This document shows positions 1 to 31,646 of a stretch of DNA of 64,000 nucleotides, piece by piece. Location: IMG/VR virus record IMGVR_UViG_2565956719_000002. One strand, 5' to 3'. The notes beneath the pieces are model-generated. The model saw only the letters and a list, made by a program, of their open reading frames with translations. It had not been told where the DNA came from and did no database searches. A program made the position numbers and the translations under genes. Every line of letters starts with the position of its first letter. Within the stretch, counting starts at the first letter, position 1. This stretch comes from a virus (lineage: Duplodnaviria > Heunggongvirae > Uroviricota > Caudoviricetes).

Positions 1-2
1 CA

Positions 3-368
3 TTTTCTTCTGAAAAGTACCCAAATCTGGCAAAGGTTTACCCAACGTTAAAATTACCTGATTTACGCGGTGAGTTTATCCGTGGTTGGGATGATGGGCG
101 AGGTGTGGATGCGGGAAGGGTCATCTTAAGCATACAGGGGTGGTTAACAGGAAGTCATTATCATAATATTCGGTCATGGGACGCGTGGGATAACACGGTA
201 TTGGTGCCAAATGACAGAGGGGGGGATAGCCTGTTGTCGACAGATAACGCCGTCCAAGAAGGAGCGATTAATGGTAAATTTACCAGTCAATACAGAACGG
301 AGTTATCTGGGGGGAATGAAACCCGCCCACGTAACATTGCCTTCAATTATATTGTGAGAGCAGCATAA
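3..368 (+). CDS. Tail fibre protein, C-terminal variable part (5-prime end lies left of the window)
   Basis: Open frame from window edge; tail-collar motif KLPDLRGEFIRGWDDGRG; ends ETRPRNIAFNYIVRAA; stop overlaps next start (TAATG). Confidence 0.8.
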   Translation, partial: FSSEKYPNLAKVYPTLKLPDLRGEFIRGWDDGRGVDAGRVILSIQGWLTGSHYHNIRSWDAWDNTVLVPNDRGGDSLLSTDNAVQEGAINGKFTSQYRTELSGGNETRPRNIAFNYIVRAA

Positions 369-979
369 TGGATAATGCGATATTAAATAGCGAACTTATA
401 GCCATACAGGCAGGAAACATTATCGTTTATAACTATGATGGTGGTAATCGGGAATATATTTCTGCATCAACTGAATATCTTGCTGTTGGCGTTGGTATTC
501 CGGCACATTCTTGTTTGGATGCTCCAGGCTCACATAAAGCAGGTTATGCGATTCTCCGTTCAGAGGATTTAAGTTCATGGGAGTATGTGCCAGATCATCG
601 TGGCGAAACTGTCTATAGCATTGACACAGGGAATCCCGAAGAAATCACGGTGTTGGGTGACTATCCGGAAAATACAACCACTATCGCCCCGCTAACACCA
701 TACGACAAATGGGATGGAGAGAAATGGGTGGTTGATACTGAGGCTCAACATAGTGCAGCTGTAGAGGCAGCAGAAACAAAACGTCAGTCATTGATTGATA
801 CTGCGATGGATTCCATTAGTCTGATTCAGTTGAAATTACGGGCTGGACGGAAGTTGACGCAGGCAGAAACCACGCAGCTTAACTCCGTGCTAGATTATAT
901 AGACGAGCTGAACGCGATGGATTTAACCACGGCACCAGATCTCAACTGGCCTGAAAAACAACTTTCTACAGCCAGTTGA
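368..979 (+). CDS. Tail fibre assembly protein (Tfa/U-like)
   Basis: 203-aa ORF coupled to the fibre gene; size and position typical of Mu U / P2 G-type chaperones. Confidence 0.7.
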   Translation: MDNAILNSELIAIQAGNIIVYNYDGGNREYISASTEYLAVGVGIPAHSCLDAPGSHKAGYAILRSEDLSSWEYVPDHRGETVYSIDTGNPEEITVLGDYPENTTTIAPLTPYDKWDGEKWVVDTEAQHSAAVEAAETKRQSLIDTAMDSISLIQLKLRAGRKLTQAETTQLNSVLDYIDELNAMDLTTAPDLNWPEKQLSTAS

Positions 980-984
980 TATAA

Positions 985-1482
985 TTAATCCGCCCTCACA
1001 ATATAATTAAATGCAATATTACGAGGGCGGGTTTCTAAGCCAGCAGTACCTAAATTAGCTACGGACTGTTTATATGTTTTAAAAGTTCCATAATTAGGGG
1101 CTGGCAATCCTGCATCGCTTGTGTTCCCCCATCTGATAACTCCCGTATTACCACTAGTAGCCCATGCCTCGTCAAAGTAGAAATTAATTGAGCTGTCAGT
1201 TGCTACGGTTGATTTTGACGGTAATCCGTGAGCATGATCCTCCGTTGCATATCCTTGCTCGCTTAAAATAGAGCGACCTGGATCAATCCCGCGCCCGTCA
1301 TCCCAGCCACGAATGAACTCACCACGTAAATCAGGCAATTTATTTGTCGGGTAAGCCTTTGCCAGTTCCGGGTATTCTTCAGCAGAAAAAGCCGCACCGT
1401 TGCATTTCAGCCAGCCTGTTGGCGGAGTGGCTGAAGGCCACGGAACAGGGACACCAACAGGTAATGCAGAGCCTTCTCCCAA
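985..1482 (-). CDS. Alternative tail-fibre C-terminal segment (Sv-prime-like), silent in this orientation
   Basis: Minus-strand ORF with the same tail-collar motif and same C-terminal ETRPRNIAFNYIVRAD; track start is TTG; frame closes with a stop just beyond the crossover-like site. Confidence 0.7.
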   Translation of the reverse strand: MGEGSALPVGVPVPWPSATPPTGWLKCNGAAFSAEEYPELAKAYPTNKLPDLRGEFIRGWDDGRGIDPGRSILSEQGYATEDHAHGLPSKSTVATDSSINFYFDEAWATSGNTGVIRWGNTSDAGLPAPNYGTFKTYKQSVANLGTAGLETRPRNIAFNYIVRAD

Positions 1483-1500
1483 ACCAACGTTTTAGTCTTA
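1474..1500. other. Putative invertase crossover site (hix/gix/cix-like)
   Basis: TTCTCCCAAACCAACGTTTTAGTCTTA resembles hixL TTCTTGAAAACCAAGGTTTTTGATAA (recalled); sits at the 5-prime edge of the silent fibre segment, about 55 bp before the invertase gene. Confidence 0.45.
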
Positions 1501-1553
1501 ATCCCTACCTATACCAACGATGTATTTTTAACTAAACAAAGAGGTTGTTTTTC

Positions 1554-2126
1554 ATGCAAATTGGCTACATTCGTGTGTCAACAAATGACCAAAACACAGA
1601 TTTACAAAGAAATGCACTGAACTGCGCAGGATGTGAACTGATTTTTGAAGATAAAATAAGCGGAACAAAGTCAGCCAGACCAGGCTTGAAAAAGCTGCTC
1701 AGAACGTTATCAGAAGGAGATACGCTGGTTGTCTGGAAGCTGGATAGGCTTGGCAGAAGTATGAAACACCTTATCACGCTTATAGAGGAGTTGCGGGAAA
1801 AAGGTGTTAATTTCCGTAGTCTGACAGACAGTATTGACACATCAACACCCATGGGGCGTTTCTTTTTTCACGTCATGGGGGCTTTAGCAGAAATGGAACG
1901 TGAATTAATTGTTGAGAGAACACTGGCCGGACTGGCAGCTGCACGCGAACAGGGACGCATTGGCGGACGTCGCCCGAAGTTGACAAAAGAACAACATGAG
2001 CAAATAGCGAGGTTGATCGAAAATGGCTACAGCAGGAAACAGTTGGCAATTATTTACGATATCGGTGTATCGACGATTTATCGTTATCATCCTGTAGAGA
2101 AGCGCCAAACTCAATCTGAGCTGTAA
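1554..2126 (+). CDS. cin: Serine DNA invertase (Cin/Gin/Pin/Hin family)
   Basis: MQIGYIRVSTNDQNTDLQRNAL...VVWKLDRLGRSMKHL...GRFFFHVMGALAEMERELIVERT; close to Pin/Hin as recalled; ATG at 1554 with GAGG upstream. Confidence 0.9.
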   Translation: MQIGYIRVSTNDQNTDLQRNALNCAGCELIFEDKISGTKSARPGLKKLLRTLSEGDTLVVWKLDRLGRSMKHLITLIEELREKGVNFRSLTDSIDTSTPMGRFFFHVMGALAEMERELIVERTLAGLAAAREQGRIGGRRPKLTKEQHEQIARLIENGYSRKQLAIIYDIGVSTIYRYHPVEKRQTQSEL

Positions 2127-2561
2127 TTCTAATGCCGCGTCGGTGTAATTTATCTTGATAGAATAGGTACATTTATCGCGCGGCACATCAATTCGATGTA
2201 TCTAGCGCCTGCTGACCGCTAATGAAAACTGTCCTCGAAATGTTGTCCCTAGCCCGAGACTAGGGTATCACCTCTGGAAAGCATACGCAGAACCTTTTTT
2301 AACCCAGGGTGCCCAGCCTTTTTGCTGCTCGCCTTATTCGCAAAAATTAGCTCACATCCTGCGCTTTCAAGTGCTTTTCACTGCATAGCTGTGTTTTGTT
2401 CATTTGTCTATATGCGTACATAGCCTATTAGCATATTTTCTGCCCACTATCGTTATTTATTGCAAGCTACAGGTTTTAATTAACAAAACCAGTGTGTGTG
2501 GAAATCACAAAGTGCATACCGTTCTCAGATGTTGTTCAACTTACTGTTGTATAGGTAAAAA

Positions 2562-2849: not shown

Positions 2850-2871
2850 GAGAAGTTACTTTGCATACCAT
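2850..2871 (+). promoter_or_regulatory. Late-promoter-like element (weak variant)
   Basis: GAGAAGTTACTTTGCATACCAT aligns with the motif shared upstream of lysozyme, portal, pacA and the baseplate block. Confidence 0.3.
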
Positions 2872-3669: not shown

Positions 3670-4258
3670 GTATGCAACGGTCGATTTTGACCAGGTTAAT
3701 GAAAAGGGGCTGAAATCCCTTATCGCGGCGATCAATAAAACCGGTGTTACGGTAATTGAGGTTGACTCCAGCAACCGCGCAACAACGAAAGATGGCGTTA
3801 AAGTTAAAACCGCAAAGCTGGTTCTTAACGACGGACAAATTCTTGCCATACAGGTAAACGATACTGGCGATATATCGTCTGTGAGGCTGAATGGAAAAGC
3901 TATTCCTAACGCTCAATCGCCGGATATCAAGACGCTTGGTACCGTCATGGGGCAAGCGGCCCGCAAAAACTCCGCAAAATTCCAGAAATCACTGATCGCC
4001 AAAGCGAAACGTGTTGCCAATCCGGTAGACAAGAAACCGGCAGTAAAATCCAATTTTCAGCGCCTGCAAGAGGCAAAACAGCGGAATGCTCAGGTGGTTG
4101 CCGCTTATAAATCAGCGCAGAACTCGGTGTCTTTCAATCAACAGCAGATCACTGATTTGCGGGCGAAGCTGGATAAGGAGACAGGCCGACTCAATAACGA
4201 AAAGGCCCGAAATGGCGAACTCAAACGCCGTCTTAAGCAACTGAAAGCAGGAAATTAA
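3647..4258 (+). CDS. hdf: Hdf-like protein (paralog of a DarA segment)
   Basis: 203 aa; shares a KNSAKFQ-containing coiled-coil segment with the downstream 639-aa protein. Confidence 0.55.
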   Translation: MCQMTKNKYATVDFDQVNEKGLKSLIAAINKTGVTVIEVDSSNRATTKDGVKVKTAKLVLNDGQILAIQVNDTGDISSVRLNGKAIPNAQSPDIKTLGTVMGQAARKNSAKFQKSLIAKAKRVANPVDKKPAVKSNFQRLQEAKQRNAQVVAAYKSAQNSVSFNQQQITDLRAKLDKETGRLNNEKARNGELKRRLKQLKAGN

Positions 4259-4259
4259 C

Positions 4260-6179
4260 ATGGAACAGTTCAATATCAATAAAGGGGTGACGATCAAGCC
4301 TGGGCTTGACGTGCTTCCCCCGCCAGTGACTGATGATGAATATCGCGCATTAATGGCCGGTGAGGACCGCTATCTGATGACGGAATCCAACACCCTGGAG
4401 GAAATCGAGGCTACGTTCTTCTATGACACGCCGATCCACTGGTGTGCTACGGATTTACTGGAGGCGATTAGTTCTACTCGTTTGCAGTTACACCGGACCA
4501 TGCAGGCATTTGTCCGGGCATTGAACCAGAAGCTGAATGGTACCGGAATCTCTGCGGGGAGTGATAAAACGGGGGATGTGGCCCAGAGCGGCGCGCGCGC
4601 GATCGGCGGCGCTGAAATTGGCCGGGCACGTAACGTTAACGGGCTGCCGGTCTTGCCAGCCATTATTCCGCTCAGTGATGGTCAGACTATCAGCATTCTG
4701 TTTCATAGCCCGACAGCGGAAAACCGGATCACCAATAGCGATACGCTGGTTGCTTTCCAGTTCTTACTGAATAAAAAAGACGTTACTCACACCGTTGCTC
4801 CGATGAGTGGACGTGATATGACGCTGGCGCAGGTCACCATGAAACTTGCCAACCTTGCAGAGAAAAACTCGGCAAAATTCCAGCGTGCGCAGAAGAAGAA
4901 AAAAGCCCTTGTTGATGAAATAACCCAACTACAGGCTGACAGTGACCAGAAAGAGGATGCCATGAGCGACCTCGCGGATCAGGTGGCAGCGGTAGAAGGG
5001 CAGAAGGCAGATCTGGAGCAGAAAATTAACGCTGTTGCATCGGAAGCGGATTCTCTTTATGAAGAGAATGAGCGTTTGCAGACGGAGATTGATCAGCTCA
5101 ATCGCACTGGTGGGCGCGATACCATTGCTCCAGCGGGGATGACTGGTGGGCACTCTCGCGCGCTGACGGATCGCCTTGCCAGTATCAAAAATCGTATGCA
5201 TATGGACGGGGAAGTGACGCTCAGTAATGGTGCATCAATGAAGCAATTCATTGGGGGCGGCGAAGGGTATATCCAGTTAACCGATCAGGATGGCAGCGTA
5301 TACATGATCAAGGCTAAATCCATACAGGGTGTGGACATGGCAGATGCGATCGGCAAGCTGTTTAAAGCCTATAAAGCGGGTAATGTATCGGAATACCTGG
5401 TCCAACCAGAAGAACATAAACCGGAAAACGTCGAACCTGAACCAGCGGAGGATACCGGTAGCTCTTCGCCTGAACCAGAAGTCTCTGTAGGTGCATATCG
5501 ATATGCCCTGCAAATGCGTCCGGCGGCCCCTGGCGCAATACCTGAAGGTAACAAAGCAATTCTGCCGCGCCCTGATGAAGGTGACCCGTATTATGAATAT
5601 GCACGCTACGGCATTGCTACTTACGATACCCCGCTTTCTGATCAGCAAATGAGTGAGTACGACCTGAAGTTATTGCCTCGCGAGGATTCTTTCGACTTCC
5701 TGGCGAAGACACTTACTAATGGTCCGTTTGGCAAATATGCACAAAAAACTCTGGATCTGGCCACCAGCTCACCAGACGAGTTCCGCGTAATGCTGAAAAC
5801 TCAGTTTCAAAAAACTTTCCCCAATATTGCGTTTCCGGGGGGCGCTGGCACCGAGAAAATGGTGCAGAGCATGATCAATACATTGCAGGCCGAAGTCGGT
5901 GAGATTACTCAGCCAGAACCGGCCCCGGCACAGCCTGATGAAACGGTTAGCGAAGCAGATGCAGAGGCTAATAAAGCCATTGAATATCTCAATAACGTGA
6001 TGGATATGCAAAGCACTGACATGGCGGAGATCCGTAACGCTCGGGGCAATGTCCGGGAAGCGATTGCAGCCCTTCAGGCTGCCGGACGTTTTGAGGAAAA
6101 CGAAGAGCTGGTTAACGGCGCAGCTCGCCACCTGGCTGATCTGTTGGTAGCAATCCAGAAAGCGGGGGTAGCGGCATGA
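4260..6179 (+). CDS. darA: DarA-like head-internal anti-restriction protein
   Basis: 639 aa, coiled-coil middle, acidic stretches; operon context hdf-darA-ddrA-ddrB. Confidence 0.65.
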   Translation: MEQFNINKGVTIKPGLDVLPPPVTDDEYRALMAGEDRYLMTESNTLEEIEATFFYDTPIHWCATDLLEAISSTRLQLHRTMQAFVRALNQKLNGTGISAGSDKTGDVAQSGARAIGGAEIGRARNVNGLPVLPAIIPLSDGQTISILFHSPTAENRITNSDTLVAFQFLLNKKDVTHTVAPMSGRDMTLAQVTMKLANLAEKNSAKFQRAQKKKKALVDEITQLQADSDQKEDAMSDLADQVAAVEGQKADLEQKINAVASEADSLYEENERLQTEIDQLNRTGGRDTIAPAGMTGGHSRALTDRLASIKNRMHMDGEVTLSNGASMKQFIGGGEGYIQLTDQDGSVYMIKAKSIQGVDMADAIGKLFKAYKAGNVSEYLVQPEEHKPENVEPEPAEDTGSSSPEPEVSVGAYRYALQMRPAAPGAIPEGNKAILPRPDEGDPYYEYARYGIATYDTPLSDQQMSEYDLKLLPREDSFDFLAKTLTNGPFGKYAQKTLDLATSSPDEFRVMLKTQFQKTFPNIAFPGGAGTEKMVQSMINTLQAEVGEITQPEPAPAQPDETVSEADAEANKAIEYLNNVMDMQSTDMAEIRNARGNVREAIAALQAAGRFEENEELVNGAARHLADLLVAIQKAGVAA

Positions 6180-6541
6180 CACTATCAGCTATTGAGTTAA
6201 TGGATCTCAGCGATAAGTTGGATGCTCTGATGTCCAAAGCGGCTACCGCGAGTGGCATGGAGTTGCTGGATATCAGCGATGAAATTGACCAGATCATGCA
6301 ACAGATGGGGTACGGTGTGTCCGGCGGCAGTAGTGGCGAGGAAAAACAACCTTCGGTACATGATGGTGTGCCAAAACTGGTTGCTGATTTCCTGGCTGAT
6401 AAATTCGTCGATCAGAGCACCGATGCATTTATCGGTACCTTGCAGGATTTGAGTCAATATGTTGGCACATACATCGACCTGGACCAGGTTAAACAGCACA
6501 CGGCGGCATGGATAGCCGCCAACATTAAAGAGGCAGCATAA
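6176..6541 (+). CDS. DdrA-like small acidic protein
   Basis: 121 aa, start overlaps darA stop. Confidence 0.45.
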   Translation: MTLSAIELMDLSDKLDALMSKAATASGMELLDISDEIDQIMQQMGYGVSGGSSGEEKQPSVHDGVPKLVADFLADKFVDQSTDAFIGTLQDLSQYVGTYIDLDQVKQHTAAWIAANIKEAA

Positions 6542-6553
6542 GGCGTAACAGGG

Positions 6554-9541
6554 ATGAGCTTAAGCGATCAGGTGGTGATGGCCACCAGCATAGAAACGCT
6601 GATCGAGCTGCTAAAAAACCTGCCCGATTACGGGCGGGTTTCGTATGTGGTGACAGCGAAGGGAGACGAGGTAAAAACAGCGTTTGATATCGTCGATGCC
6701 TCAGCTCTTTTGGTATCCAATACTCTGGATGGGAAAATTAATCCAGACTATCCCCAGGAACTTCAGCCGCGCGACCGGACCCGCGCATCCAGCCTTCTTC
6801 AGGTCAACCAGATATCCAAGGATTTGCGTCCTGCCCAGCTTACCGACTCCGGTTTATCCAGCCATGGCGCGCCGATAATTGGTGAGGACAATGCCATTGA
6901 GTCAGGTAATGGACGGACCATGGGGATCATCAAAGCCTATCAGGACGGCAATGCGGATCGGTATCGTGAGTACCTGATTAAACATGCGACCGAATTCGGA
7001 ATACGACCTGAAAAGGTTGAATCAATGACGGCTCCGGTACTGGTGCGCCGCCGGTTAACGAAGGTTGACCGTGTTCAGTTTGCCAAGGACTCAAATATTT
7101 CTGATCTCCAGGAAATGGCAGCCAGTGAAAAGGCTTTTGTTGATGCCGACAGCATAACTCCGGCGATGATGGCGCTGTTTAACCCATCAGAAAGCGGAGA
7201 TCTGCTTAGCCGCAGTAATGACGCGTTTATTCGCGGATTCATGACGCAAGTTGGTGCCACACAGGCTGCTGGCCTTGTAACGGAAGATGGGCGACCAACA
7301 CGGCAACTTGTTGACCGTATACAAAACGCGATCTTTGCCAAGGCATATAAGGATGCGCGCCTGGTAAGGATGGTTGCAGAAGAACCTGATCCGGATATGC
7401 GTAATGTTCTGACGGCGCTTAATGCGGCAGCCAATGATTTTGTCCAGATGCAGGCTTTATCAGGAGAAGCGCACAAGCAGGCTGTGACAACTATTGTTGA
7501 TGGCATTGAGACAGCGGATAGCCTCGATAAAAAGGCGCTGGAGGCATTGAAAGATGCGGTAGACCTGGTAAGGCAATCGAAGGAGTCAGGCCAGCATATT
7601 ACCGATGTTATTGCTCAGGGGGATATGTTCAGCGAAACGGCCCCGGAAGTGAAAGCACTCGCGTTGTTCATCGTCGCGAATAACCGTAGCGCGAAGCGTA
7701 TGGCCACCGCCTTTAAGTTGATGGCTCAACGTATCAATGATGAGTTACAGCACCAGGGCCAGGCGCTGGGGGATATGTTTGGCGGCGGCGATGTGTCGTT
7801 ACAGGATATCCTTCGCCAGGTGTCTCAGGAACTGGAAAACGAAGGCATGCAAGGGATATCCGGCGGTCTTTTCGAGTCCGTTTCCGGCGGTAGTTACAAC
7901 GGTGTTGCTCCATATACCAGCTTGCTATTACATCGGGCATCCGGCATCAAAGATATTATTCATCTGATCAGGCTGCTTTCCCGTGCAGATCCCCAGGATG
8001 AACAGCTTGTTCAAGTGCTTGCGCATTTTGTTCGAATGCCTGTTGCCGACGTGAAAAAATGGTGCCGATTATTCGGTATCAGCAATTCGTTACTTCGCGG
8101 CTTGTTAAATCACGCATCCTCCCTTGGGCGCGATGGCTTTGACGAGATAGCGCAGGCGATAAAAAACGGAGATATGCCACCAGCTATTGACTGGTTTTCC
8201 ATTCGCCCAACCAGGGTGAAAGCATTCCTTAGCGCGGCGCATTCGGCATCACCATTGGCAGAAATGGTTCAGAGGTTGTCGCTCATATTCACAGACCATA
8301 CCGCGTTGGGTGATCTGACTCTGGACGAGATGAAAGACGCCTCCATTCAGTGGGCCGATCAACAAAATGAGGTTAACTCAGACTTCTTGCCAGCATTCAG
8401 GAAGGCCGTTAGTAAAGCGGATGATGCCCGTGGAATTCTGAAGGCATTTAAGGCATTGCAAAGTCGTGTTAATAAACATGTCGGTGATATCGATGGGGTA
8501 ACGGCGGAAGGCCGGGATATCCTTAAAGAGCACGGCATAACGCCAGAGTTTATTGATGAGATCAGGACTGATATGCAGCGTGAGGTCGTATCGTCCCTGC
8601 AAATCGTAGCCAGAGCGTTGGCGGATGCTAATCCGAAGAGTGCGGCCATTGTTAACCGGGTTATTGGTGATATTGAAGCATCGGAGGGCATGGGGGCGCT
8701 GAAACTCTTCCTTTCGCGAGCGTTTAATCCTAACGGCAATATTCTCCCTGGCATTATTGGTGAGGCTAAAAAGTATGTCAGTGAAGAAGAACTTGAGCAG
8801 CTTGACCAACTACTTAAGCGATTCTCATATAATCCGCAGACACGCTGGCAAATGAATCAGCGAAGTATGGGTTCGGTCCACGAGAAAGTGTTATCTGCCA
8901 TGAACAGTGCGATCGCCAACTCATCCGTATCTGAAGAAAAAGCTCTTGAGTGGGCCGACTCTTTTATCACGGAAGAAGTGGAAGAAGCCCGCGCTGGACA
9001 GAATGGTGGGATAGACCTGCGCAAGGAACTTGCTGATATTTATCGCCTGACCGGCGGTAAAATTTCGACCTTATCAAAGGTGGTTCACCACCAGGGAAGG
9101 GCATATGCAAATCTTAATGGTGTTGTTGCTGTCGATTTGCACGATGAAAATGCAAATGCACTGTGGCACGAGCTGGGTCATCATCTTGAGTACAGTAACC
9201 CGGGTTTGTTAGAGAAAGCCAGGTCATTCCTGAAGGCCAATGTTGAAGGGGATAAGCCATCTTTCGTTAATATTGGTGGGCGTGGCAAGCCTGAATGGTG
9301 CTTCAGATCTCGATTGAGTGATATTTATATGGCGAAGGTATACCCGCCAGCCTCAGTAAGTAACACCGGGAAAATTCGGCAGAAATCACCGACTATTTCC
9401 AAAACGTCAGCAACGGAAGTATTCTCTATGGCTCTTCAGTTGTATCATGACAAAGAGGCCGCTGCCGCATCACTGATGAATGGTGACGGATTGCTGGAAC
9501 TGTTATTAGGTGTGGCAAAGGAGCTAAATAATGCAGATTAA
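6554..9541 (+). CDS. DdrB-like large head-associated protein
   Basis: 995-aa ORF continuing the darA operon; position only. Confidence 0.5.
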   Translation: MSLSDQVVMATSIETLIELLKNLPDYGRVSYVVTAKGDEVKTAFDIVDASALLVSNTLDGKINPDYPQELQPRDRTRASSLLQVNQISKDLRPAQLTDSGLSSHGAPIIGEDNAIESGNGRTMGIIKAYQDGNADRYREYLIKHATEFGIRPEKVESMTAPVLVRRRLTKVDRVQFAKDSNISDLQEMAASEKAFVDADSITPAMMALFNPSESGDLLSRSNDAFIRGFMTQVGATQAAGLVTEDGRPTRQLVDRIQNAIFAKAYKDARLVRMVAEEPDPDMRNVLTALNAAANDFVQMQALSGEAHKQAVTTIVDGIETADSLDKKALEALKDAVDLVRQSKESGQHITDVIAQGDMFSETAPEVKALALFIVANNRSAKRMATAFKLMAQRINDELQHQGQALGDMFGGGDVSLQDILRQVSQELENEGMQGISGGLFESVSGGSYNGVAPYTSLLLHRASGIKDIIHLIRLLSRADPQDEQLVQVLAHFVRMPVADVKKWCRLFGISNSLLRGLLNHASSLGRDGFDEIAQAIKNGDMPPAIDWFSIRPTRVKAFLSAAHSASPLAEMVQRLSLIFTDHTALGDLTLDEMKDASIQWADQQNEVNSDFLPAFRKAVSKADDARGILKAFKALQSRVNKHVGDIDGVTAEGRDILKEHGITPEFIDEIRTDMQREVVSSLQIVARALADANPKSAAIVNRVIGDIEASEGMGALKLFLSRAFNPNGNILPGIIGEAKKYVSEEELEQLDQLLKRFSYNPQTRWQMNQRSMGSVHEKVLSAMNSAIANSSVSEEKALEWADSFITEEVEEARAGQNGGIDLRKELADIYRLTGGKISTLSKVVHHQGRAYANLNGVVAVDLHDENANALWHELGHHLEYSNPGLLEKARSFLKANVEGDKPSFVNIGGRGKPEWCFRSRLSDIYMAKVYPPASVSNTGKIRQKSPTISKTSATEVFSMALQLYHDKEAAAASLMNGDGLLELLLGVAKELNNAD

Positions 9542-23782: not shown

Positions 23783-24424
23783 TCAGAGATAATTACCTTT
23801 ACCCGTCAATTCCCCTTGTGGTACTTGTTTTTGCGCCAGTGTTTGGGTTCCGCGAATTATGTTAATCAGAGGGCTTAGTAACGATGGTTCCTGGCGTGCC
23901 TCAACTTCTCCAGCCATTGCCCTGATGTAGTCGGCGCTGGCAACGTTGTTGTATTCCGTTGCGAAGCAGCATAACAACGTCAGAACATGCTCTGTCGTTA
24001 TTTCGCTCCAGTTGATGTTGAAAAATTCATCGCCTTTTTTATCGTGTTCGGAATCGAAGATGCTTTGGTGGAGGATGTATTTGCCGGATTCCTTGCGCGG
24101 TAACTTGATCGCTTTCTGGCGTTCCAGCTCCTTGTAAATCTGCATTGCTTCAATCAGTACCGGCCTGCCGTTCATGAAGGGATCGCGCAACCTTACACGC
24201 TGGCCAACTCGACCAGTAATAAAGCTGTTTTCCTCTTCCACCAGCACGATAAAACCCTTTTCCTCTTTTTCTCGCAATTCGCGCAGCAGCTGGAGTTCCA
24301 TATCGCGGCGGCGTTCAGGGTAGCTGGTCCGCTCAGCCATTATTAGCTCATTGTTGATCCATGCGGCAGTCATTGACGCCGGTTTGCCGACGCTCATCGA
24401 AACAACGCATATTTTCTTATCCAT
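23783..24424 (-). CDS. Hypothetical protein (accessory region)
   Basis: About 213 aa from ATG (MDKKICV) with AGGGG upstream; no recognisable motif. Confidence 0.5.
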   Translation of the reverse strand: MDKKICVVSMSVGKPASMTAAWINNELIMAERTSYPERRRDMELQLLRELREKEEKGFIVLVEEENSFITGRVGQRVRLRDPFMNGRPVLIEAMQIYKELERQKAIKLPRKESGKYILHQSIFDSEHDKKGDEFFNINWSEITTEHVLTLLCCFATEYNNVASADYIRAMAGEVEARQEPSLLSPLINIIRGTQTLAQKQVPQGELTGKGNYL

Positions 24425-24683
24425 AGCGCCCCTACAAAAAAGAAAAGCCACCAGCGGCGGCTTAGCAATACAACTGAAGGTAGCGCCCGGTACTCAGACT
24501 GTGCCGTCCATGGAATATTTGAAAAGGGATCCATCCGTACCGGGCGTGTGATGATTCTGACTCAAGTCACTTGTCAGTTGTCAATCATTTATCATTAAAA
24601 ATAATATATTTATTAGTGCATACAAATAAGACACTAAGTGTGCACATTGCAACCTCAGAGAGGAAACATTCAACCAGCCTGTA

Positions 24684-24700
24684 ATTGCTCTAATGAATTT
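24684..24700 (+). promoter_or_regulatory. C1-operator-like 17-mer upstream of antirepressor module A
   Basis: ATTGCTCTAATGAATTT, 16/17 to consensus; about 320 bp upstream of the coupled leader ORF. Confidence 0.5.
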
Positions 24701-24860
24701 GATTTTTTGGGGCGGAAATACTACCATTGTACGCCAGACTATTGATCTTCCTGTTGTTCAGGCTTATAGTTCCTACGTCGTAGCAAATTCTGCGACCGGG
24801 TTTGACAGCCTGAATGTACATGCGGACAACCGCAGATATCCGCATATTGCGGTATTTTTG
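24701..24860 (+). ncRNA. Candidate c4-like antisense RNA region of module A
   Basis: Elements 24724-24745 and 24925-24958 are roughly complementary to repeats at 24805-24838 and 24969-25009, the latter overlapping the leader-ORF ribosome-binding site; hairpin CCGCA-TAT-TGCGG plus T-run near 24839-24858. Confidence 0.3.
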
Positions 24861-25018
24861 TGTCCGTAAAACCACGTTACGCCCGAATTATGGTGGGGCG
24901 TGATGGGGAGGCTTCGGCCTGCTGGTTTCATGTACGCCAGTCTGTCAACCCCGTCACGTCCTGCCACCTGTTTGACAGCGGGTAGCAGGTTGTTAAACCT
25001 GTACATGAGGCCGTAACT

Positions 25019-25240
25019 ATGGTTAATGCCAATCCTTGCGCACGCCCTGAATTCATCTGGCGCTTTTACTCCTGCCAGAAACGTCACTATCACTTCGTTA
25101 TCGCACCAACAGAAGATGAGGCACGTTCTCAGCTTCCGGATGCTCCCTGTATTTTCTCTGCCCGCTTTTCTACCGATTTGCGCAATTCTCTCAGTTACTG
25201 GTGCCTCCCTGTTAACGCTTCTGCTCAGGAGGGGCTATGA
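25019..25240 (+). CDS. Leader protein coupled to antirepressor A (icd-like position)
   Basis: 73 codons, GAGG upstream, stop overlaps ant start (ATGA); inverted copy at 31086-31312 differs by 14 synonymous codon changes and one amino acid. Confidence 0.55.
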   Translation: MVNANPCARPEFIWRFYSCQKRHYHFVIAPTEDEARSQLPDAPCIFSARFSTDLRNSLSYWCLPVNASAQEGL

Positions 25241-26295
25241 GAACGTCATTAGTCACCCGTGAAGAGATGATCGAGGCAATTGAACAGCACACTGCCTGTA
25301 TCAGTACCAGGGATATACCTGGCGTTATTGCCAACTACTTCATGATCACCAAACAACTTTACCGGAGAAAGGACAAAAACGCGGTTCACCGCATTCTGCT
25401 GTCTGATATCCGTGAATACCTGCTCGAACAGGGGCATCTGAATTACGCAACCGTCGCAGCCGAAACACGCAAGGAGGCACACAGAATGAAAGCAAGCAAA
25501 CCAGATGTTGTCGTTACAAAGCCTTTGACAGCAACCACACCAGCAACGGCCATGGATGCTATCCCCAACACCGGAGACACAATCGACAGCCAGACGCTGT
25601 TAAAGATGGTCAATGAAGCGCGGAAATTATGTAGCGAAAAACCAGTTCGCAATAATGATTTTATTGCCAGAGTTAAGGATGAACTGGATGGTGAGTACTA
25701 CGAAATTTTCGTAGTGCAAAAATTAAACAACACAACATCTGAAACTATCTCCATGACCTACAAACAAGCCCTGCGAGTTGCCGCGCGCGAGTCAAAAGCG
25801 GTCCGCCGTTCGCTGATCGACAAACTGGAGGAATTGCAGCAGGCTAGCACTGCTTCTCCAGTGATTCCCCAAACACTCCCCGAAGCTCTGCGCCTGGCTG
25901 CCGAGCTGGCTGAACAAAAGCAACTTCTGGAACAGAAAGCCCACCAGCTAAATCAGCAGCTGGTGGCCGCCGCTCCTAAAGTCGATTTTGCCGACCGGGT
26001 ATCAGTAGCTAAAGGGATCCTGATTGGGAATTTTGCAAAGGTTGTTGGACTTAAGCAAAACGCGCTGTTTGCCTGGTTACGGGAGAACGGCATCCTGATA
26101 GCGTCCGGTGGACGTAAAAATGTGCCGTTCCAGCAATACATCAACGCTGGGTATTTTTCTGTGAAAGAAGTGGTGCTGGATGATGAAGATGGCTATCAGA
26201 TACGACTGACGCCCCAGTTAACGGGGAAAGGCCAGCAGTGGTTGACGCGTAAACTGCTCGATGCTGGCTTGTTAAAACCGGTGGCGGCTGAATGA
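25237..26295 (+). CDS. Antirepressor-like protein A (KilA-C-type C-terminus)
   Basis: 352 aa; C-terminal NFAKVVGLKQNALFAWLRENGIL...PFQQYINAGYF typical of phage antirepressor C-domains; N- and C-termini near-identical to copy B, middle unrelated. Confidence 0.7.
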   Translation: MRTSLVTREEMIEAIEQHTACISTRDIPGVIANYFMITKQLYRRKDKNAVHRILLSDIREYLLEQGHLNYATVAAETRKEAHRMKASKPDVVVTKPLTATTPATAMDAIPNTGDTIDSQTLLKMVNEARKLCSEKPVRNNDFIARVKDELDGEYYEIFVVQKLNNTTSETISMTYKQALRVAARESKAVRRSLIDKLEELQQASTASPVIPQTLPEALRLAAELAEQKQLLEQKAHQLNQQLVAAAPKVDFADRVSVAKGILIGNFAKVVGLKQNALFAWLRENGILIASGGRKNVPFQQYINAGYFSVKEVVLDDEDGYQIRLTPQLTGKGQQWLTRKLLDAGLLKPVAAE

Positions 26296-26321
26296 TTAAA
26301 AAAGGCGGCCTTGCGGCCGCC
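26296..26321. terminator. Hairpin terminator (A-run plus GGCGGCC-TTGC-GGCCGCC)
   Basis: Perfect 7-bp stem; read on minus strand it is followed by a T-run. Confidence 0.5.
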
Positions 26322-26542
26322 AATGATGTCACGGAGTCTATAATGGCAATGTGAATGTCTTCGTAGTTGACTAAAGCCACAACTCAATTATAACAATTAA
26401 TTATAGCAATGGTGGCTATTTTATTTATCGCGAATCACATTTTTTCTCTTCAGTACCTGTGTGCTATACTCCTTCTTGATTGATTGGATGCGGAATACAA
26501 ACCCGCTCTTTTGTGCAGCCTGGCTCCTTGCCAGGCTTTTTT

Positions 26543-26854
26543 TTATTTCATCATGGAAGCTGTTAACGCTTTGGACCTTGCTGAACTGATTGAAAGGGCA
26601 TTGTTTACCTTACCCAGGAGTTCGCCAAATTCCCCCATCACTCTAGTAAGCCCGCGCCGCGCTTCCTCCTCCGTTGCATTCATCACAAAATGTTCAGCAC
26701 TCCGCATGCTTTTAACGGGGAACGCAACAGATATCGAGTCGATATCAGGCATCCTATCGCTCAACTTTACGGTGACAATGACAGATGGTGACAGAATATT
26801 AGTGCTTACAGACAGCACTACATATTTTCCGTCGATGTTGAAATCCTTTCTCAT
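26543..26854 (-). CDS. Hypothetical protein downstream of cre
   Basis: 103-aa ORF preceded on minus strand by an operator-like box. Confidence 0.45.
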   Translation of the reverse strand: MRKDFNIDGKYVVLSVSTNILSPSVIVTVKLSDRMPDIDSISVAFPVKSMRSAEHFVMNATEEEARRGLTRVMGEFGELLGKVNNALSISSARSKALTASMMK

Positions 26855-26870
26855 ATGTCACCATAAATAT

Positions 26871-26887
26871 CAAAGAATTAGAGCAAT
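26871..26887 (-). promoter_or_regulatory. C1-operator-like box
   Basis: Core TTAGAGCAAT exact, 13/17 overall. Confidence 0.4.
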
Positions 26888-26904
26888 CATTTGCGCGTTA
26901 ATGG

Positions 26905-27936
26905 CTAATCGCCATCTTCCAGCAGGCGCACCATTGCCCCTGTTTCACTATCCAGGTTACGGATATAGTTCATGACAATATTTACGTTGGTCCAGCCACC
27001 AGCTTGCATGATCTCCGGTATTGAAACTCCGGCGCGGGCCATATCTCGCGCGGCTCCGACACGGGCACTGTGTCCAGACCAGGCCAGGTATCTCTGCCCA
27101 GAGTCATCCTTAGCGCCGTAAATCAATCGATGAGTTGCTTCAAAAATCCCTTCCAGAGCGCGAGTTGATAGCTGGCTGGTGGCAGATGGCGCGGCAACAC
27201 CATTTTTTCTGACACGGCAAAACAGGTAGTTATTCGGATCATCAGCCACACCAGAGACAGAAATCCATCGCTCGACCAGTTTAGTTACCCCCAGGCTAAG
27301 TGCCTTCTCTACACCTGCGGTGCTAACCAGCGTTTTCGTTCTGCCAATATGGATTAACATTCTCCCACCGTCAGTACGTGAGATATCTTTAACCCTGATC
27401 CTGGCAATTTCGGCTATACGTAACAGGGTGTTATAAGCAATCCCCAGAAATGCCAGATTACGTATATCCTGGCAGCGATCGCTATTTCCCATGAGTGAAC
27501 GAACCTGGTCGAAATCAGTGCGTTCGAACGCTAGAGCCTGTTTTGCACGTTCACCGGCATCAACGTTTTCTTTTCGGATCCGCCGCATAACCAGTGAAAC
27601 AGCATTGCTGTCACTTGGTCGTGGCAGCCCGGACCGACGATGAAGCATGTTTAGCTGGCCCAAATGTTGCTGGATAGTTTTTACTGCCAGACCGCGCGCC
27701 TGAAGATATAGAAGATAATCGCGAACATCTTCAGGTTCTGCGGGAAACCATTTCCGGTTATTCAACTTGCACCATGCCGCCCACGACCGGCAAACGGACA
27801 GAAGCATTTTCCAGGTATGCTCAGAAAACGCCTGGCGATCCCTGAACATGTCCATCAGGTTCTTGCGAACCTCATCACTCGTTGCATCGACCGGTAATGC
27901 AGGCAAATTTTGGTGTACGGTCAGTAAATTGGACAT
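26905..27936 (-). CDS. cre: Cre tyrosine recombinase
   Basis: 343 aa, MSNLLTVHQNLPALPVDATSDEVRKNLMDMFRDRQAF...RLLEDGD; matches P1 Cre as recalled except Gly at position 150. Confidence 0.97.
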   Translation of the reverse strand: MSNLLTVHQNLPALPVDATSDEVRKNLMDMFRDRQAFSEHTWKMLLSVCRSWAAWCKLNNRKWFPAEPEDVRDYLLYLQARGLAVKTIQQHLGQLNMLHRRSGLPRPSDSNAVSLVMRRIRKENVDAGERAKQALAFERTDFDQVRSLMGNSDRCQDIRNLAFLGIAYNTLLRIAEIARIRVKDISRTDGGRMLIHIGRTKTLVSTAGVEKALSLGVTKLVERWISVSGVADDPNNYLFCRVRKNGVAAPSATSQLSTRALEGIFEATHRLIYGAKDDSGQRYLAWSGHSARVGAARDMARAGVSIPEIMQAGGWTNVNIVMNYIRNLDSETGAMVRLLEDGD

Positions 27937-27943
27937 TTAACAC

Positions 27944-28165
27944 TCAGATAATAGTTTTAAGTAAAGTGTACAGGATTGGCTCTGCCTTTACCTGTTTATG
28001 GTTCTCGTCATAGAAACGCCAGCGACCGCGCGTGCGTTCTATTTTCTCTTCACCGCGCGATAATGACAGTTGGCAACTATCACGATCAAACCCTTTTGCC
28101 CGCCAGTAACCACGGTTTTTCTCAAGCTCAATATGAGTGGACACTTTAGCAGCTGAATATCCCAT
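27944..28165 (-). CDS. Small protein between loxP and cre (Cra-like position)
   Basis: 73-aa ORF ending 8 nt before cre start. Confidence 0.4.
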   Translation of the reverse strand: MGYSAAKVSTHIELEKNRGYWRAKGFDRDSCQLSLSRGEEKIERTRGRWRFYDENHKQVKAEPILYTLLKTII

Positions 28166-28354
28166 TTTTCACCTCTGATTGATTGGTGGTGCTAAGTGCG
28201 CTACGCGAAATCTGGAGCACTAACACTGCCAACATTTCGCAGATTTTACGTAGCGCAACCTTGATCAAATGATCAAGTGATCACTATTTAACCTGATAAG
28301 GTATTGAACTGTATGGATTTACAGGTAAATTGATCATGTTCAATAACCCTTAAG

Positions 28355-28388
28355 ATAACTTCGTATAATGTATGCTATACGAAGTTAT
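28355..28388. other. loxP recombination site
   Basis: Exact ATAACTTCGTATA-ATGTATGC-TATACGAAGTTAT. Confidence 0.97.
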
Positions 28389-28431
28389 TAGGTCCGAAGA
28401 GGAGTTTACGTCCAGCTGCGCATAAAAATCA

Positions 28432-28448
28432 AGAATTATTAGAGCAAT
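28432..28448 (-). promoter_or_regulatory. C1-operator-like 17-mer facing cre
   Basis: Minus strand ATTGCTCTAATAATTCT, 15/17. Confidence 0.5.
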
Positions 28449-28505
28449 AAATTTTGAGAGAAAAATCCCACTCCACCAGCCAAAAACTGGATTGTTTTTC
28501 ATAGT

Positions 28506-28535
28506 TGTTTGACAATTGCTCTAATAAATTATAGT
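28506..28535 (+). promoter_or_regulatory. Sigma70-type promoter with operator in the spacer, facing the coi-like and c1 genes
   Basis: TTGACA - 18 nt containing ATTGCTCTAATAAATTA (28514-28530) - TATAGT. Confidence 0.55.
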
Positions 28536-28769
28536 TTTGCCGCCGTTTCGTAATACGACTTTGGATTCACTATTTAATGTGTCTTCAGCGTTGTAGAGCG
28601 GCTCAGAAGGAAATGAGCAAACAGGGAAACCTTATACAACGGCATTACAGCTATGCATTGCTCATCTTACACACAGCGCAATGTTGTTAGATTACCCCAG
28701 CATGGATCATGGGTGAAACAGTAGGTCAGAGCTTCAGGCTCTGTGTTGTCAATACAGTGAGGCATAATT

Positions 28770-28979
28770 ATGGCTTTCATTCCACCAACCATCGACGACG
28801 TTAGACATTGCTCTAACGCTTTATCTGTAGACCCCGCCGAAACCGACGCTGCCCGCGCCATTGCTGAACACTACTCAAAGATATCCAATCAGGAGTACCG
28901 CATCACCCAAGACGACCTGGATGATCTCACTGACACAATCGAATATCTCATGGCCACTAACCAACCAGACTCACAATAA
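28770..28979 (+). CDS. coi: Coi-like protein (C1 inactivator position)
   Basis: 69-aa acidic ORF immediately upstream of c1; size matches P1 Coi as recalled. Confidence 0.55.
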   Translation: MAFIPPTIDDVRHCSNALSVDPAETDAARAIAEHYSKISNQEYRITQDDLDDLTDTIEYLMATNQPDSQ

Positions 28980-28995
28980 ATGCACTAATAAATCT
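28979..28995 (+). promoter_or_regulatory. Weak C1-operator-like box between coi and c1
   Basis: AATGCACTAATAAATCT, 14/17. Confidence 0.3.
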
Positions 28996-29089
28996 ATTAT
29001 TTTCGTTGGATCCTTCTATAATGGTGGCCAACAACTCCCAGTGTAATCCGCTGTGAGTTGTTGGCCATGTCAATTCTGGAGGAGGATCA

Positions 29090-29941
29090 ATGATAAATTA
29101 TGTCTACGGCGAACAACTGTACCAGGAGTTCGTCAGCTTCAGGGATCTCTTTCTAAAAAAAGCTGTTGCACGCGCCCAACACGTTGATACAGCCAGCGAC
29201 GGTCGTCCTGTACGCCCGGTTGTCGTTCTACCGTTCAAAGAAACTGACAGCATTCAGGCTGAAATTGATAAATGGACTTTAATGGCGCGGGAACTGGAAC
29301 AGTACCCAGACCTCAATATCCCAAAGACTATTTTATATCCAGTGCCTAACATCCTTCGCGGTGTGCGTAAGGTTACAACTTATCAGACAGAAGCTGTGAA
29401 CAGCGTCAACATGACCGCTGGCCGCATTATTCATCTGATTGATAAGGACATTCGCATCCAAAAAAGCGCGGGGATCAATGAGCACAGTGCGAAATACATA
29501 GAGAACCTGGAAGCAACAAAAGAGCTAATGAAGCAGTACCCGGAGGATGAAAAATTCCGTATGCGTGTACACGGCTTTAGCGAAACAATGTTGCGCGTCC
29601 ATTACATTTCCAGTAGCCCTAACTACAATGATGGTAAATCAGTTAGTTACCATGTGCCGCTGTGTGGTGTGTTTATCTGCGATGAAACTCTCCGTGATGG
29701 AATCATCATCAACGGTGAATTCGAGAAAGCAAAATTTAGCCTTTATGACTCCATAGAACCGATCATCTGCGACCGCTGGCCGCAAGCAAAAATATATCGC
29801 CTGGCAGATATTGAAAATGTAAAAAAACAAATTGCCATCACTCGCGAAGAGAAAAAGGTTAAGTCAGCCGCATCAGTTACGCGCAGCCGTAAAACCAAGA
29901 AGGGGCAGCCAGTAAACGACAACCCCGAAAGCGCGCAATAA
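29090..29941 (+). CDS. c1: C1 repressor of lysis
   Basis: 283 aa beginning MINYVYGEQLYQEF; size, start and context match P1 C1 as recalled; GGAGG upstream. Confidence 0.75.
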   Translation: MINYVYGEQLYQEFVSFRDLFLKKAVARAQHVDTASDGRPVRPVVVLPFKETDSIQAEIDKWTLMARELEQYPDLNIPKTILYPVPNILRGVRKVTTYQTEAVNSVNMTAGRIIHLIDKDIRIQKSAGINEHSAKYIENLEATKELMKQYPEDEKFRMRVHGFSETMLRVHYISSSPNYNDGKSVSYHVPLCGVFICDETLRDGIIINGEFEKAKFSLYDSIEPIICDRWPQAKIYRLADIENVKKQIAITREEKKVKSAASVTRSRKTKKGQPVNDNPESAQ

Positions 29942-29944
29942 ATT

Positions 29945-29970
29945 ATGCCCGGCATCAACCGGGCATTCTT
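29945..29970. terminator. Bidirectional terminator between convergent c1 and antirepressor B
   Basis: GCCCGG-CATCAA-CCGGGC hairpin with flanking T-rich runs on both strands. Confidence 0.6.
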
Positions 29971-29973
29971 CCA

Positions 29974-31089: not shown

Positions 31090-31312
31090 AGTCCCTCCTG
31101 AGCAGAAGCGTTAACAGGGAGGCACCAGTAACTGAGAGAATTGCGTGAATCAGTGGAAAAACGGGCAGAGAAAATACATGGGGCGTCAGGAAGCTGAGAG
31201 CGGGCCTCATCTTCTGTCGGTGCAATAACGAAGTGATAGTGACGTTTTTGGCAGGAGTAAAAGCGCCAGATAAATACAGGATGAGTTGGGGTAGGGATAG
31301 TAGCCATATTGG
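31086..31312 (-). CDS. Leader protein coupled to antirepressor B (icd-like position)
   Basis: ATG with GGAGG upstream; 62 C-terminal codons conserved with copy A; stop overlaps ant start. Confidence 0.5.
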
Positions 31313-31472
31313 CAGCCTCCTTAGACGTTGGTATGTAACCACCGCAGAAGAGACCAATCTTGCTGGCGGTGGACTGTACGGAGTTGGCCTTACTGGCGTC
31401 CAAGGTAACCAGCCTACCCGAAGGTAGCCCCATACAGCCCACCATTGTAGAGGTGTGCGTGTACGCCGATAC

Positions 31473-31643: not shown

Positions 31644-31646
31644 ATT

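Follow-up and report, generated by a model that had tools for sequence, protein, structure and literature searches.

The 2,126-nt region at the start of the window (the whole 64,000-nt stretch of DNA that was analysed) is very probably the invertase-proximal end of a multiple inversion array of the p15B Min type, belonging to a P1-like (Punavirus) phage-plasmid. Arrays of this type have been known since 1990, and as a system the one described here is ordinary. The single tail-fibre assembly gene (tfa), to which the first-pass annotation drew attention, is a standing and conserved feature of that known system and no local oddity. Interest centres on the chaperone logic, namely how fibre tips that lack a co-transcribed tfa would be folded.

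The features of the region are summarized in Table 1. As had been read from the open reading frames, it opens inside a fibre gene on the plus strand, which ends in a Collar-domain tip (cassette D) with its stop codon at 366-368. The full form of cassette D has 153 codons (152 aa) and contains the Pfam Collar domain (E=5e-15), and it gives a weak, sub-threshold match to the receptor-binding domain of the T4 short tail fibre; all 10 D cassettes examined start at a 26-bp crossover site. The ATG of tfa overlaps the stop codon of cassette D (ATAATG), and the PF02413 (Caudo_TAP) domain covers residues 78-197 of its product. The spacer between the stop codons of tfa and of the alternative fibre end on the minus strand (cassette E) is indeed only 5 bp (980-984). 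Cassette E encodes 165 aa, is silent in the present orientation and reads from the crossover site toward tfa. This site, previously proposed as a hix/gix-like sequence at 1474-1500, proved to be a 26-bp crossover site ending one position earlier. It consists of a fixed outer half (AAGACTAAAACG), TT/AA as central dinucleotide and an inner half (GGTTTGGGAGAA) that provides the codons for the G-L-G-E of the cassette.

Table 1. Features in and next to the 2,126-nt region, in window positions.
Feature	Position	Strand	Basis
Fibre-tip cassette D, 3' part (122 codons + stop)	1..368	+	ORF, translation
tfa, tail-fibre assembly (chaperone) gene, 203 aa	368..979	+	PF02413, E=3e-30
Fibre-tip cassette E, 165 codons + stop	985..1482	-	ORF; Collar domain, E=1e-15
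Crossover site (mix/cix/gix-type), 26 bp, adjoining the invertase gene	1474..1499		TTCTCCCAAACC AA CGTTTTAGTCTT
Left arm of inverted homology, shared 5' collar-coding part of cassette D	3..131	+	Repeat search, protein alignment
Right arm of inverted homology, shared 5' collar-coding part of cassette E	1261..1389	-	Repeat search, protein alignment
Perfect hairpin, 15 bp, at the tail-to-tail junction	987..1033		Repeat search, folding
Serine DNA invertase (Min/Cin/Gin/Pin/Hin family), 190 aa	1554..2126	+	Resolvase, E=2e-51; HTH_7, E=4e-15
Truncated invertase pseudogene, convergent with the invertase gene	2256..2434	-	About 75% nt identity with the invertase gene (5' end)

The assignment of the following gene to the Cin family was likewise borne out. 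Besides the Resolvase and HTH_7 domains, its product matches the Mu Gin structures (PDB 4m6f and 3uj3) over the full length (residues 1-185, E=4e-92) and contains the catalytic-serine motif GYIRVSTNDQ. The exact sequence occurs on at least 1000 contigs and bears the UniRef name 'DNA-invertase' (representative Q05517_ECOLX). The translation of the truncated copy beyond it, MLIGYVRI*TNEQNTAMQ*KALESAGCELIF..., has two in-frame stops. The inverted homology between the two fibre ends, estimated earlier at about 120 bp and 75%, measures 129 nt with 76% complementarity, and it is simply the common 5' collar-coding part of cassettes D and E, which continues to the crossover sites. The hairpin begins 8 nt past the tfa stop, within the last codons of cassette E. 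In folding calculations it is strong in the E cassettes of the window and of a P2-like prophage (locus L023), and those cassettes that precede a tfa have it in degraded form; it looks like a putative bidirectional terminator.

The first 2300 nt of the window are 100% identical to the 99.6-kb E. coli plasmid NZ_CP102949.1 (locus L001), and a phage assigned to Punavirus matches the window at 96.8% identity. The flanking genes (R, S, lydC/lydA/lydB and darA) are of the P1 type. Since the tail of the window has no match to the start of NZ_CP102949.1, the window may come from a sibling record in which the cassettes are ordered differently. In this plasmid, the partner site that had been predicted about 100 bp to the left lies at window positions -107 to -82. 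The block itself has, as described, a single tfa between two convergent alternative fibre ends (D-tfa-E'). What did not hold was its reading as a simple two-ended segment of the G/C type, as it is instead one of five segments in an array with six sites and six alternative ends. The array spans 3518 bp from first to last site, with one of the sites inside the window, and the segments measure 435, 508, 514, 478 and 1581 bp. Five sites point the same way, and the sixth (window 1474-1499) is inverted. The reading frames were checked at each site, and all six cassettes are in frame after the constant part of S; intact genes in which S is fused to a cassette are annotated in loci L003 and L005. In the 16.7-kb locus, 17 copies of the core motif AAACCNNNGTTT were counted where 4.3 would be expected, and 0 of 200 shuffles reach this number; a chance origin of the site motif is excluded.

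Across 14 mapped loci, 13 cassette types were distinguished. Arrays of 3 to 10 cassettes are present in NZ_CP102949.1 and in the nine further records of P1-like plasmids or phages for which the map extends from S to the invertase gene. The cassettes have approximately 145-170 codons and share one layout, in which a conserved collar domain (PF07484, E-values of 1e-15 to 9e-15 in cassettes A, B, C, D and E) is followed by a variable centre of about 75 residues and a conserved tail (...RPRNIAFNYIVRAA). According to the protein alignment, the collar domain and the last 12-16 residues are common to all cassettes. The variable part of cassette E was located in 113 of 5426 complete E. coli genomes, without exception on plasmids; the window block is confined to P1-like plasmids and occurs in about 2% of these genomes. 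A search of 50,697 phage records for homologues of the variable parts of E and D yielded only the sibling P1-like phage and Klebsiella prophages with 35% identity.

That the region is invertible, as the first-pass annotation had held, is seen from public records, among which the block occurs in both orientations. Throughout the 14 loci, the same cassettes, including identical protein accessions, are met at differing positions and orientations. A synthetic query for the inverted D/invertase junction returned single-piece matches at 97.7-98.6% identity, with the recombinant junction exactly as predicted; inversion is here deduced from differences between public records and not from reads of one culture. 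In every locus the outer half-sites remain attached to the Sc and min flanks, and it is the cassettes that change. Among close relatives, the 5' collar DNA moves with its cassette at any position. As the 12-nt outer half-sites stay behind, the exchange is placed inside the 26-bp site.

In the mechanism that we propose, the constant 5' part of the tail-fibre gene S ends in a 26-bp crossover site, and each alternative 3' cassette begins with the same half-site. The Gin-like invertase would recombine any two inverted sites at the central dinucleotide, by which one cassette at a time would be fused in frame to S. D-tfa-E', as the sole segment with two convergent cassettes, would act as the pivot of the array, with the cassettes to its left pointing rightwards and those to its right pointing leftwards, and each inversion would flip it. 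The corresponding rule, plus orientation on the left side of the pivot and minus orientation on the right, holds in all mapped loci except L020, which is a misassembled record. Four single cassettes and the pivot would give 240 isomers; the simulation yielded this number as well, with tfa in sense in 120 of them. Judging from the anatomy, tfa would always be co-transcribed when D is the expressed tip, would lie in sense in half of the isomers that express a single cassette, and would never lie in sense when E is the expressed tip.

The Min system of p15B from E. coli 15T- was reportedly described by Sandmeier, Iida, Arber and co-workers in 1990-92 (GenBank X62121). We take it to comprise 3.5 kb, six crossover sites, 240 isomers and an element named psi-win, to which the truncated invertase pseudogene of the window presumably corresponds. 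Both systems reside on a P1-related plasmid, with a serine invertase adjoining a 3.5-kb six-site cluster and a truncated invertase pseudogene beside the invertase gene. In both, alternative 3' parts are joined to a constant, repeat-built 5' part of the tail fibre, and both have one tfa-like gene. In architecture, nothing essential was detected that differs. Systems of this type would also have a Fis-dependent recombinational enhancer within the 5' part of the invertase gene. The sibling plasmids differ in the set and number (3-10) of their cassettes, which belong to at least 13 types. For a published sibling plasmid, pMCR_SCKP-LL83, 99% identity at 92% coverage to the min region of p15B is reported; it carries the window block inverted, with 96.7% identity to the inverted-junction query. 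The identification with p15B is based on this secondary report, the architecture and the numbers given above.

With the C segment of P1 (Cin) and the G segment of Mu (Gin), the array shares the invertase family, the type of 26-bp site and the swapping of the 3' end of gene S, and with P1 C also the genome position between the R-S operon and the lyd/dar genes. However, P1 C and Mu G are mirror-image arrangements of two sites and two ends with their own tfa (U and U') each, whereas here six sites delimit five segments with six ends of the tail-collar type and a single tfa. The R64 shufflon (Rci) is also a multi-site inversion cluster, which joins alternative C-terminal ends to one constant gene, pilV. 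It uses a tyrosine recombinase at unrelated sites, forms a conjugative-pilus adhesin and has no chaperone gene, in contrast to the serine invertase, phage fibre and chaperone gene found here. The switches of P2-like prophages (EC958 Phi2, 500465-2 and Kp4845-2) resemble the array in their Phage_fibre_2 repeats followed by a Collar-domain tip and in a related invertase, and the crossover sites, GAGAGATAAACGTT GGTTTGGGGGAA in EC958 Phi2 and in L023, are near-identical. Published two-site switches of this group such as EC958 Phi2 are described as mirror images with an own downstream gene for each end (PMC4134206). Unlike these, the chromosomal P2-like prophage at L023 has the asymmetric D-tfa-E' block of the window as a plain two-site switch.

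This prophage and the window on its own, with two convergent ends, one site and one invertase, would both fit a classical two-state segment of the Mu G or P1 C type in which one of two tfa genes was lost. We nevertheless regard this explanation as very unlikely, as the block is embedded in arrays of 3-10 cassettes in the identical plasmid and in nine other P1-like records. Moreover, tblastn with four diverse Tfa queries detected neither a second tfa nor a remnant in the 64-kb window or in about 36 kb of sibling-plasmid flank (7.5 kb of left flank and 29 kb). The first-pass annotation had named a second tfa-like ORF opposite 368-979 as a finding that would count against it; the ORF list holds only antisense entries of 52 and 36 aa there, and nothing supports such a gene. 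The spacing between tfa and E is 5-6 bp also in the P2-like prophage, at a synonymous divergence of 0.4-0.6. With no remnant present and the spacing kept in a diverged relative, the single-tfa state is old and maintained and does not stem from a recent deletion.

Equally improbable is that homologous recombination between the inverted collar repeats of about 200 bp, and not the invertase, drives the rearrangements. These repeats do reach 129-230 nt at 76-97% identity, and when distant plasmids are compared, one and the same cassette has a mosaic 5' collar part, from which it follows that homologous exchange or gene conversion occurs over time. Close relatives, however, keep the whole collar with the cassette, be it S-fused, internal or invertase-adjacent, only the 12-nt outer half-sites remain with the flanks, and an intact Gin-like invertase adjoins the array in every locus. 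Hardly credible at all is a frozen relic in which the non-expressed cassettes are decaying pseudogene fragments. Truncated cassettes do occur in several records, and in NZ_CP102949.1 the S-fused cassette Z has two 1-nt deletions and the constant part of S is split. Yet these indels lie in CC runs and the same record has a 4.9-kb duplication, which makes an error of sequencing or assembly likely. In this plasmid the remaining five cassettes are intact, as are the copies of cassette E in 9 of 9 loci and of cassette D in 10 of 10. The pN/pS values of 0.09-0.18 over whole cassettes speak against decay as well, and so does the comparison of the E variable part with the distant copy in the P2-like prophage (22 synonymous versus 10 nonsynonymous differences, dN/dS 0.10). 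Cassette E is under purifying selection.

Our tentative reading, to which we give somewhat less than even weight, is that D-tfa-E' is a conserved and selected module of P1-like plasmids and a P2-like prophage, in which E would fold either Tfa-free or through an undescribed, orientation-independent expression of Tfa. There may be an about even chance that E, and probably the single cassettes too, assemble without co-transcribed Tfa. Evidence from relatives points in the other direction. In a Mu/SfV-like prophage (L021), an E-like tip (79% identical) is directly followed by a Tfa 75% identical to that of the window, and in mEp043, phage 500465-2 and a Klebsiella prophage, tfa follows each of the Z-like and t7-like tips. 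By analogy, this suggests that E-, Z- and t7-like tips would normally be Tfa clients, which counts against a Tfa-independent E. That isomers without tfa in sense lead to defective particles is unlikely.

A further possibility, less probable than assembly without co-transcribed Tfa, is that a single Tfa serves D, E and the single cassettes, with its promoter moving along with the block so that Tfa is produced whichever way the block lies. Whole-length identities of 75-78% to the window Tfa, including the N-terminal domain, in the Tfa proteins that follow a t7-like tip (L012) and an E-like tip (L021) would agree with such sharing, and so would the collar domain and terminal residues common to all cassettes. 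In addition, the D variable part begins with about 70 nt that are 93-100% identical between the window and the P2-like prophage, with flanks of 60-80% identity. Expression from an unrecognised promoter carried with the block is conceivable, though we would not count on it. No promoter was found: shuffled sequences gave more sigma-70-like matches than the array did, and both matches on the tfa strand fall within the shared collar part. A late-promoter-like motif, taken from sites upstream of R and lydA, had no match in the array, which is a weak negative because the motif was derived from only two sites. The strong hairpin between E and tfa also argues against sharing.

Tfa proteins combine a variable, fibre-binding N-terminal domain with a conserved C-terminal Caudo_TAP domain (PMC9608196). 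Their genes lie immediately behind a fibre gene, as tfa does behind cassette D. The Tfa paired with Z/t9-like tips in mEp043 and 500465-2 has an N-terminal domain that differs from that of the window Tfa, which indicates specificity for tip classes, and one Tfa may therefore not fit non-HxH cassettes. Two extreme assignments were considered and set aside. A strictly D-specific Tfa is weakened by L012 and L021, since a similar Tfa after t7-like and E-like tips means that the window type is not D-specific; a universal Tfa is weakened by the different N-terminal domain that accompanies Z/t9-like tips. No solved structure is related to the window Tfa by sequence.

If the module reading is true, it would explain how many tips go with a single tfa in Min-type arrays, and either outcome for E would define receptor-binding cassettes that are chaperone-free or chaperone-sharing. 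With their 13 or more interchangeable receptor-binding cassettes, each of about 75 variable residues between constant adaptors, the arrays constitute a natural library. Should several tips function with one Tfa or none, the host-range engineering of delivery vectors of the P1/P2 type would be simplified. In public data, such arrays often upset assembly and annotation, giving rise to small spurious 'plasmids', mirror duplications and fibre fragments listed as separate genes. For strain AR_0372, a 97-kb record with a mirror-duplicated S region is accompanied by a separate 5.2-kb array contig, and for strain B19429, a 2-kb 'plasmid' consists only of the block. As assembly by-products, these records are suggestive but no clean proof of isomers within one strain; the small array-only contigs hint at mixed populations.

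All details of the arrangement described in the first-pass annotation (a fibre end, one tail-fibre assembly chaperone gene (tfa), a second fibre end on the minus strand, a crossover site and an invertase gene) were borne out by the ORF list, the sequence and Pfam. A tail-collar domain was found in both fibre pieces (E about 1e-15), Caudo_TAP in the 203-aa protein (E=3e-30), and Resolvase and HTH_7 in the product of 1554-2126, which matched the Mu Gin structures over its full length (E=4e-92). The internal inverted homology of the fibre ends is likewise real (arms 3-131 and 1261-1389; 129 nt, 76% complementary) and represents the collar-coding 5′ part common to both tip cassettes, D and E.

Coordinates of the single-tfa block and its neighbours in the window and in a P2-like prophage
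Feature	Position	Strand	Source
Fibre-tip reading frame (cassette D)	enters from left edge, stop at 366-368	+	ORF list
tfa, 203 codons; ATG overlaps the D-frame stop	368-979	+	ORF list, sequence
Gap of 5 bp between tfa and the minus-strand frame	after 979		
Fibre-tip frame (cassette E), 165 codons	985-1482	-	ORF list
26-bp hix/gix/cix-type site, TTCTCCCAAACC AA CGTTTTAGTCTT	1474-1499		sequence
Invertase gene, 190 codons	1554-2126	+	ORF list
Prophage block and invertase (L023)	4160-7200		GCA_037967675.1, contig JBBPGC010000001.1

The window's left flank was deduced from a sibling, the E. coli plasmid NZ_CP102949.1 (locus L001, 99.6 kb), whose sequence is 100% identical over window nt 1-2300; Escherichia phage vB_EcoM-673R5, classified in Punavirus (P1 group), matches the same stretch at 96.8%. 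The neighbours are of P1 type, with gene R and the tail-fibre gene S on the left, and lydC/lydA/lydB-like holin/lysis genes and darA on the right. As the window tail is unlike the start of NZ_CP102949.1, the window source may be a different isomer. In the sibling, D starts at a 26-bp site spanning window positions -107 to -82, where the partner crossover site had been predicted. Four further sites lie upstream, the first of which joins the constant part of S, repeat-rich with Phage_fibre_2 repeats (Pfam), to the array. The six sites span 3518 bp from first to last (segments of 435, 508, 514, 478 and 1581 bp); five of them point in the same direction, and only the invertase-proximal one, which the window contains, is inverted. 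Every site leads into a cassette that is in frame with S; Z, A, B, C and D lie on the plus strand and E lies on the minus strand. The cassettes have in common about 70 residues at the N-terminus (the collar) and the final 12-16 residues (...RPRNIAFNYIVRAA), while the central ~75 residues are entirely different between types. The site core motif gave 17 matches against 4.3 expected, and none of 200 shuffles reached 17. The original reading as a simple two-ended segment was too narrow, since the window begins within the pivot segment of a multi-site array of the known Min type.

The Min system of the P1-related plasmid p15B, ascribed to Sandmeier et al. (1990-92), reportedly comprises a 3.5-kb region with six crossover sites and 240 isomers, and its variable gene is said to be built on a constant repeat-rich 5′ part, with a truncated invertase gene, 'psi-win', beside the invertase gene min. 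The array here has the same architecture, and the 240 isomers of our simulation match the number given for p15B. A truncated invertase pseudogene with two in-frame stops is also present in the window (about 2256-2434, minus strand), convergent with the invertase gene and ~75% identical to its 5′ end; we take it to be the counterpart of psi-win. The Mu G and P1 C segments, in contrast, have two sites and pair each end with its own tfa, and the array showed neither feature. In plasmid pMCR_SCKP-LL83, a region is reported to be 99% identical (92% coverage) to p15B min (PMC5786510), and we found the same D-tfa-E block there, inverted; the invertase of another P1-like plasmid is reported to be 98.5% identical to p15B Min (PMC6906374). 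Together with the pseudogene, these matches indirectly support a p15B Min type. Such a system is already known and common, and of 5426 complete E. coli genomes, 113 carry the variable core of E, in every case on plasmids.

When the same region from further plasmids was typed by variable cores, 13 cassette types were found in total, with three to ten per record. From S to min, the order is Z+ A+ B+ C+ D+ tfa+ E- in L001, Z+ B+ t6+ t7+ t8+ D+ tfa+ E- A- in L003, D+ tfa+ E- Z- A- t8- in L004 and t9+ t7+ C+ Z+ B+ t8+ E+ tfa- D- t6- in pMCR_SCKP-LL83 (L011). The same protein accessions occur at varying positions and strands (e.g., WP_071961622.1, cassette A). A synthetic sequence of the junction that block inversion should create, with inverted D beside the invertase gene, was used as a query and matched two plasmids in a single piece (97.7-98.6% identity) and others with one cassette in between. 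These differences between records suggest that the array shuffles. The 12-nt outer half-sites, TTCTTAATTACC next to S and AAGACTAAAACG next to the invertase gene, are fixed and, in close relatives, the entire collar sequence moves with its cassette whatever the position; these two findings put the exchange within the 26-bp site and not in the 200-bp homology. Mosaic collar parts in distant plasmids show that gene conversion takes place as well. In the loci L001 and L003-L011, the first ~210 nt of every cassette show high synonymous diversity (pS 0.15-0.3) and are mosaic between distant plasmids, whereas the variable cores hardly differ (for E, pS about 0.006), which points to gene conversion among cassettes beside crossover sites.

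Several records carry marks of assembly. Tiny 'plasmid' records made only of array segments (L018, NZ_CP142924.1, 2021 bp; L019, NZ_CP027129.1, 5193 bp) and a 97-kb record with a mirror-duplicated S region (L020, NZ_CP027133.1) are typical by-products of assembling an isomer mixture. In NZ_CP102949.1, a 4.9-kb direct duplication (record 24077-34155, L024/L001; 99.9% identical) spans the baseplate 3′ end, tube, R and the S constant part, and the S-fused cassette Z has two 1-nt deletions; both are probably artefacts of assembly or sequencing near the shuffling DNA.

The D-tfa-E′ block (E′ being E on the minus strand) is the sole segment with two convergent cassettes and therefore holds the array's only tail-to-tail junction. 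In the mapped loci, plus cassettes lie left of the block and minus cassettes right, with one misassembled record as the sole exception. A breadth-first simulation over all inversions between oppositely oriented sites kept this rule in every reachable state; each inversion spans and flips the block by construction, and the two block orientations are exactly equally frequent among the states. An array of four single cassettes and the block gave 240 isomers, 120 of which have tfa co-oriented with S. Any given single cassette was the expressed tip in 48 isomers, and D and E in 24 each.

The single tfa is genuine, as tblastn with four diverse Tfa proteins over the 64-kb window, the left flank and the other 29 kb of the sibling plasmid matched only at 368-976 and gave no second tfa. 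In a chromosomal P2-like prophage (L023), this block forms a simple switch with two sites, in the order fibre::D, tfa, 6-bp gap, E on the other strand, site and invertase, and is a second, independent case of two alternative tips with one tfa. With this prophage block at hand, a recent loss of a second tfa was rejected. Between prophage and window, the variable part of E differs by 22 synonymous and 10 nonsynonymous changes (pS 0.41, pN 0.055, dN/dS 0.10), so E is a selected protein and not a relic. In six near-identical 90-92 kb plasmids (NZ_CP093921.1 and five others; L009, 5596-7483), the pivot has a different left-hand tip (t12) and two tfa genes (138 and 200 aa) that converge and overlap, and there is one tfa-less cassette in addition; this layout stands midway between the classical mirror arrangement and the block with one tfa.

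In other prophages, tips of the array classes lie directly upstream of a tfa. The Tfa next to an E-like tip (79% identical) in the Mu/SfV-like L021 is 75% identical to the window's over its whole length, and that next to a t7-like tip in the Klebsiella P2-like L012 is 78% identical. Beside the Z/t9-like tips of mEp043 and 500465-2, the N-terminal domain of Tfa differs from the window's and the C-terminal domain is nearly the same, which fits a variable fibre-binding N-terminal and a conserved trimerising C-terminal domain (PMC9608196). The fibre of L021 (4707-6097, GCA_050309245.1) is short and non-invertible, with the E-like tip at its end and the Tfa at once after.

As far as expression and chaperone need can be inferred for this array, E would never be co-transcribed with tfa; D alone of all cassettes has tfa behind it. 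Folding of E and of the single cassettes independently of phage Tfa seems to us about as likely as not. Expression of tfa from an unrecognised promoter inside the block is possible but somewhat doubtful, since sigma-70-like matches in the array are below chance expectation, with no sign of an autonomous promoter, and the late-promoter-like motif AAGTTACTTnnCnTACnAT, found ahead of both R and the lydA-like gene, has no copy inside the inversion array. It is quite unlikely that half of the isomers are defective, as purifying selection on E speaks against this reading. The assembly of tips lacking a co-oriented tfa poses a modest question that can be tested.

A perfect 15-bp hairpin (987-1033) lies between tfa and E, in the last codons of E and 8 nt past the tfa stop codon. 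The structure is strong in both tail-to-tail E copies (window and P2-like prophage) and degraded in cassettes with a tfa behind, and may act as a bidirectional terminator of the tail-fibre operon. The start of the D variable part (122-190), in which no canonical promoter was seen, is 93-100% identical in nucleotides to the P2-like prophage copy, with flanks at 60-80%, reflecting a recent exchange or else a nucleic-acid element under constraint. Finally, the motif AAGTTACTT-nn-C-n-TAC-n-AT, probably the P1 late-promoter element and absent from the inversion array, occurs at window 2853-2871 (+) and L001 2533-2551 (+), upstream of the lydA-like holin gene and R, respectively.
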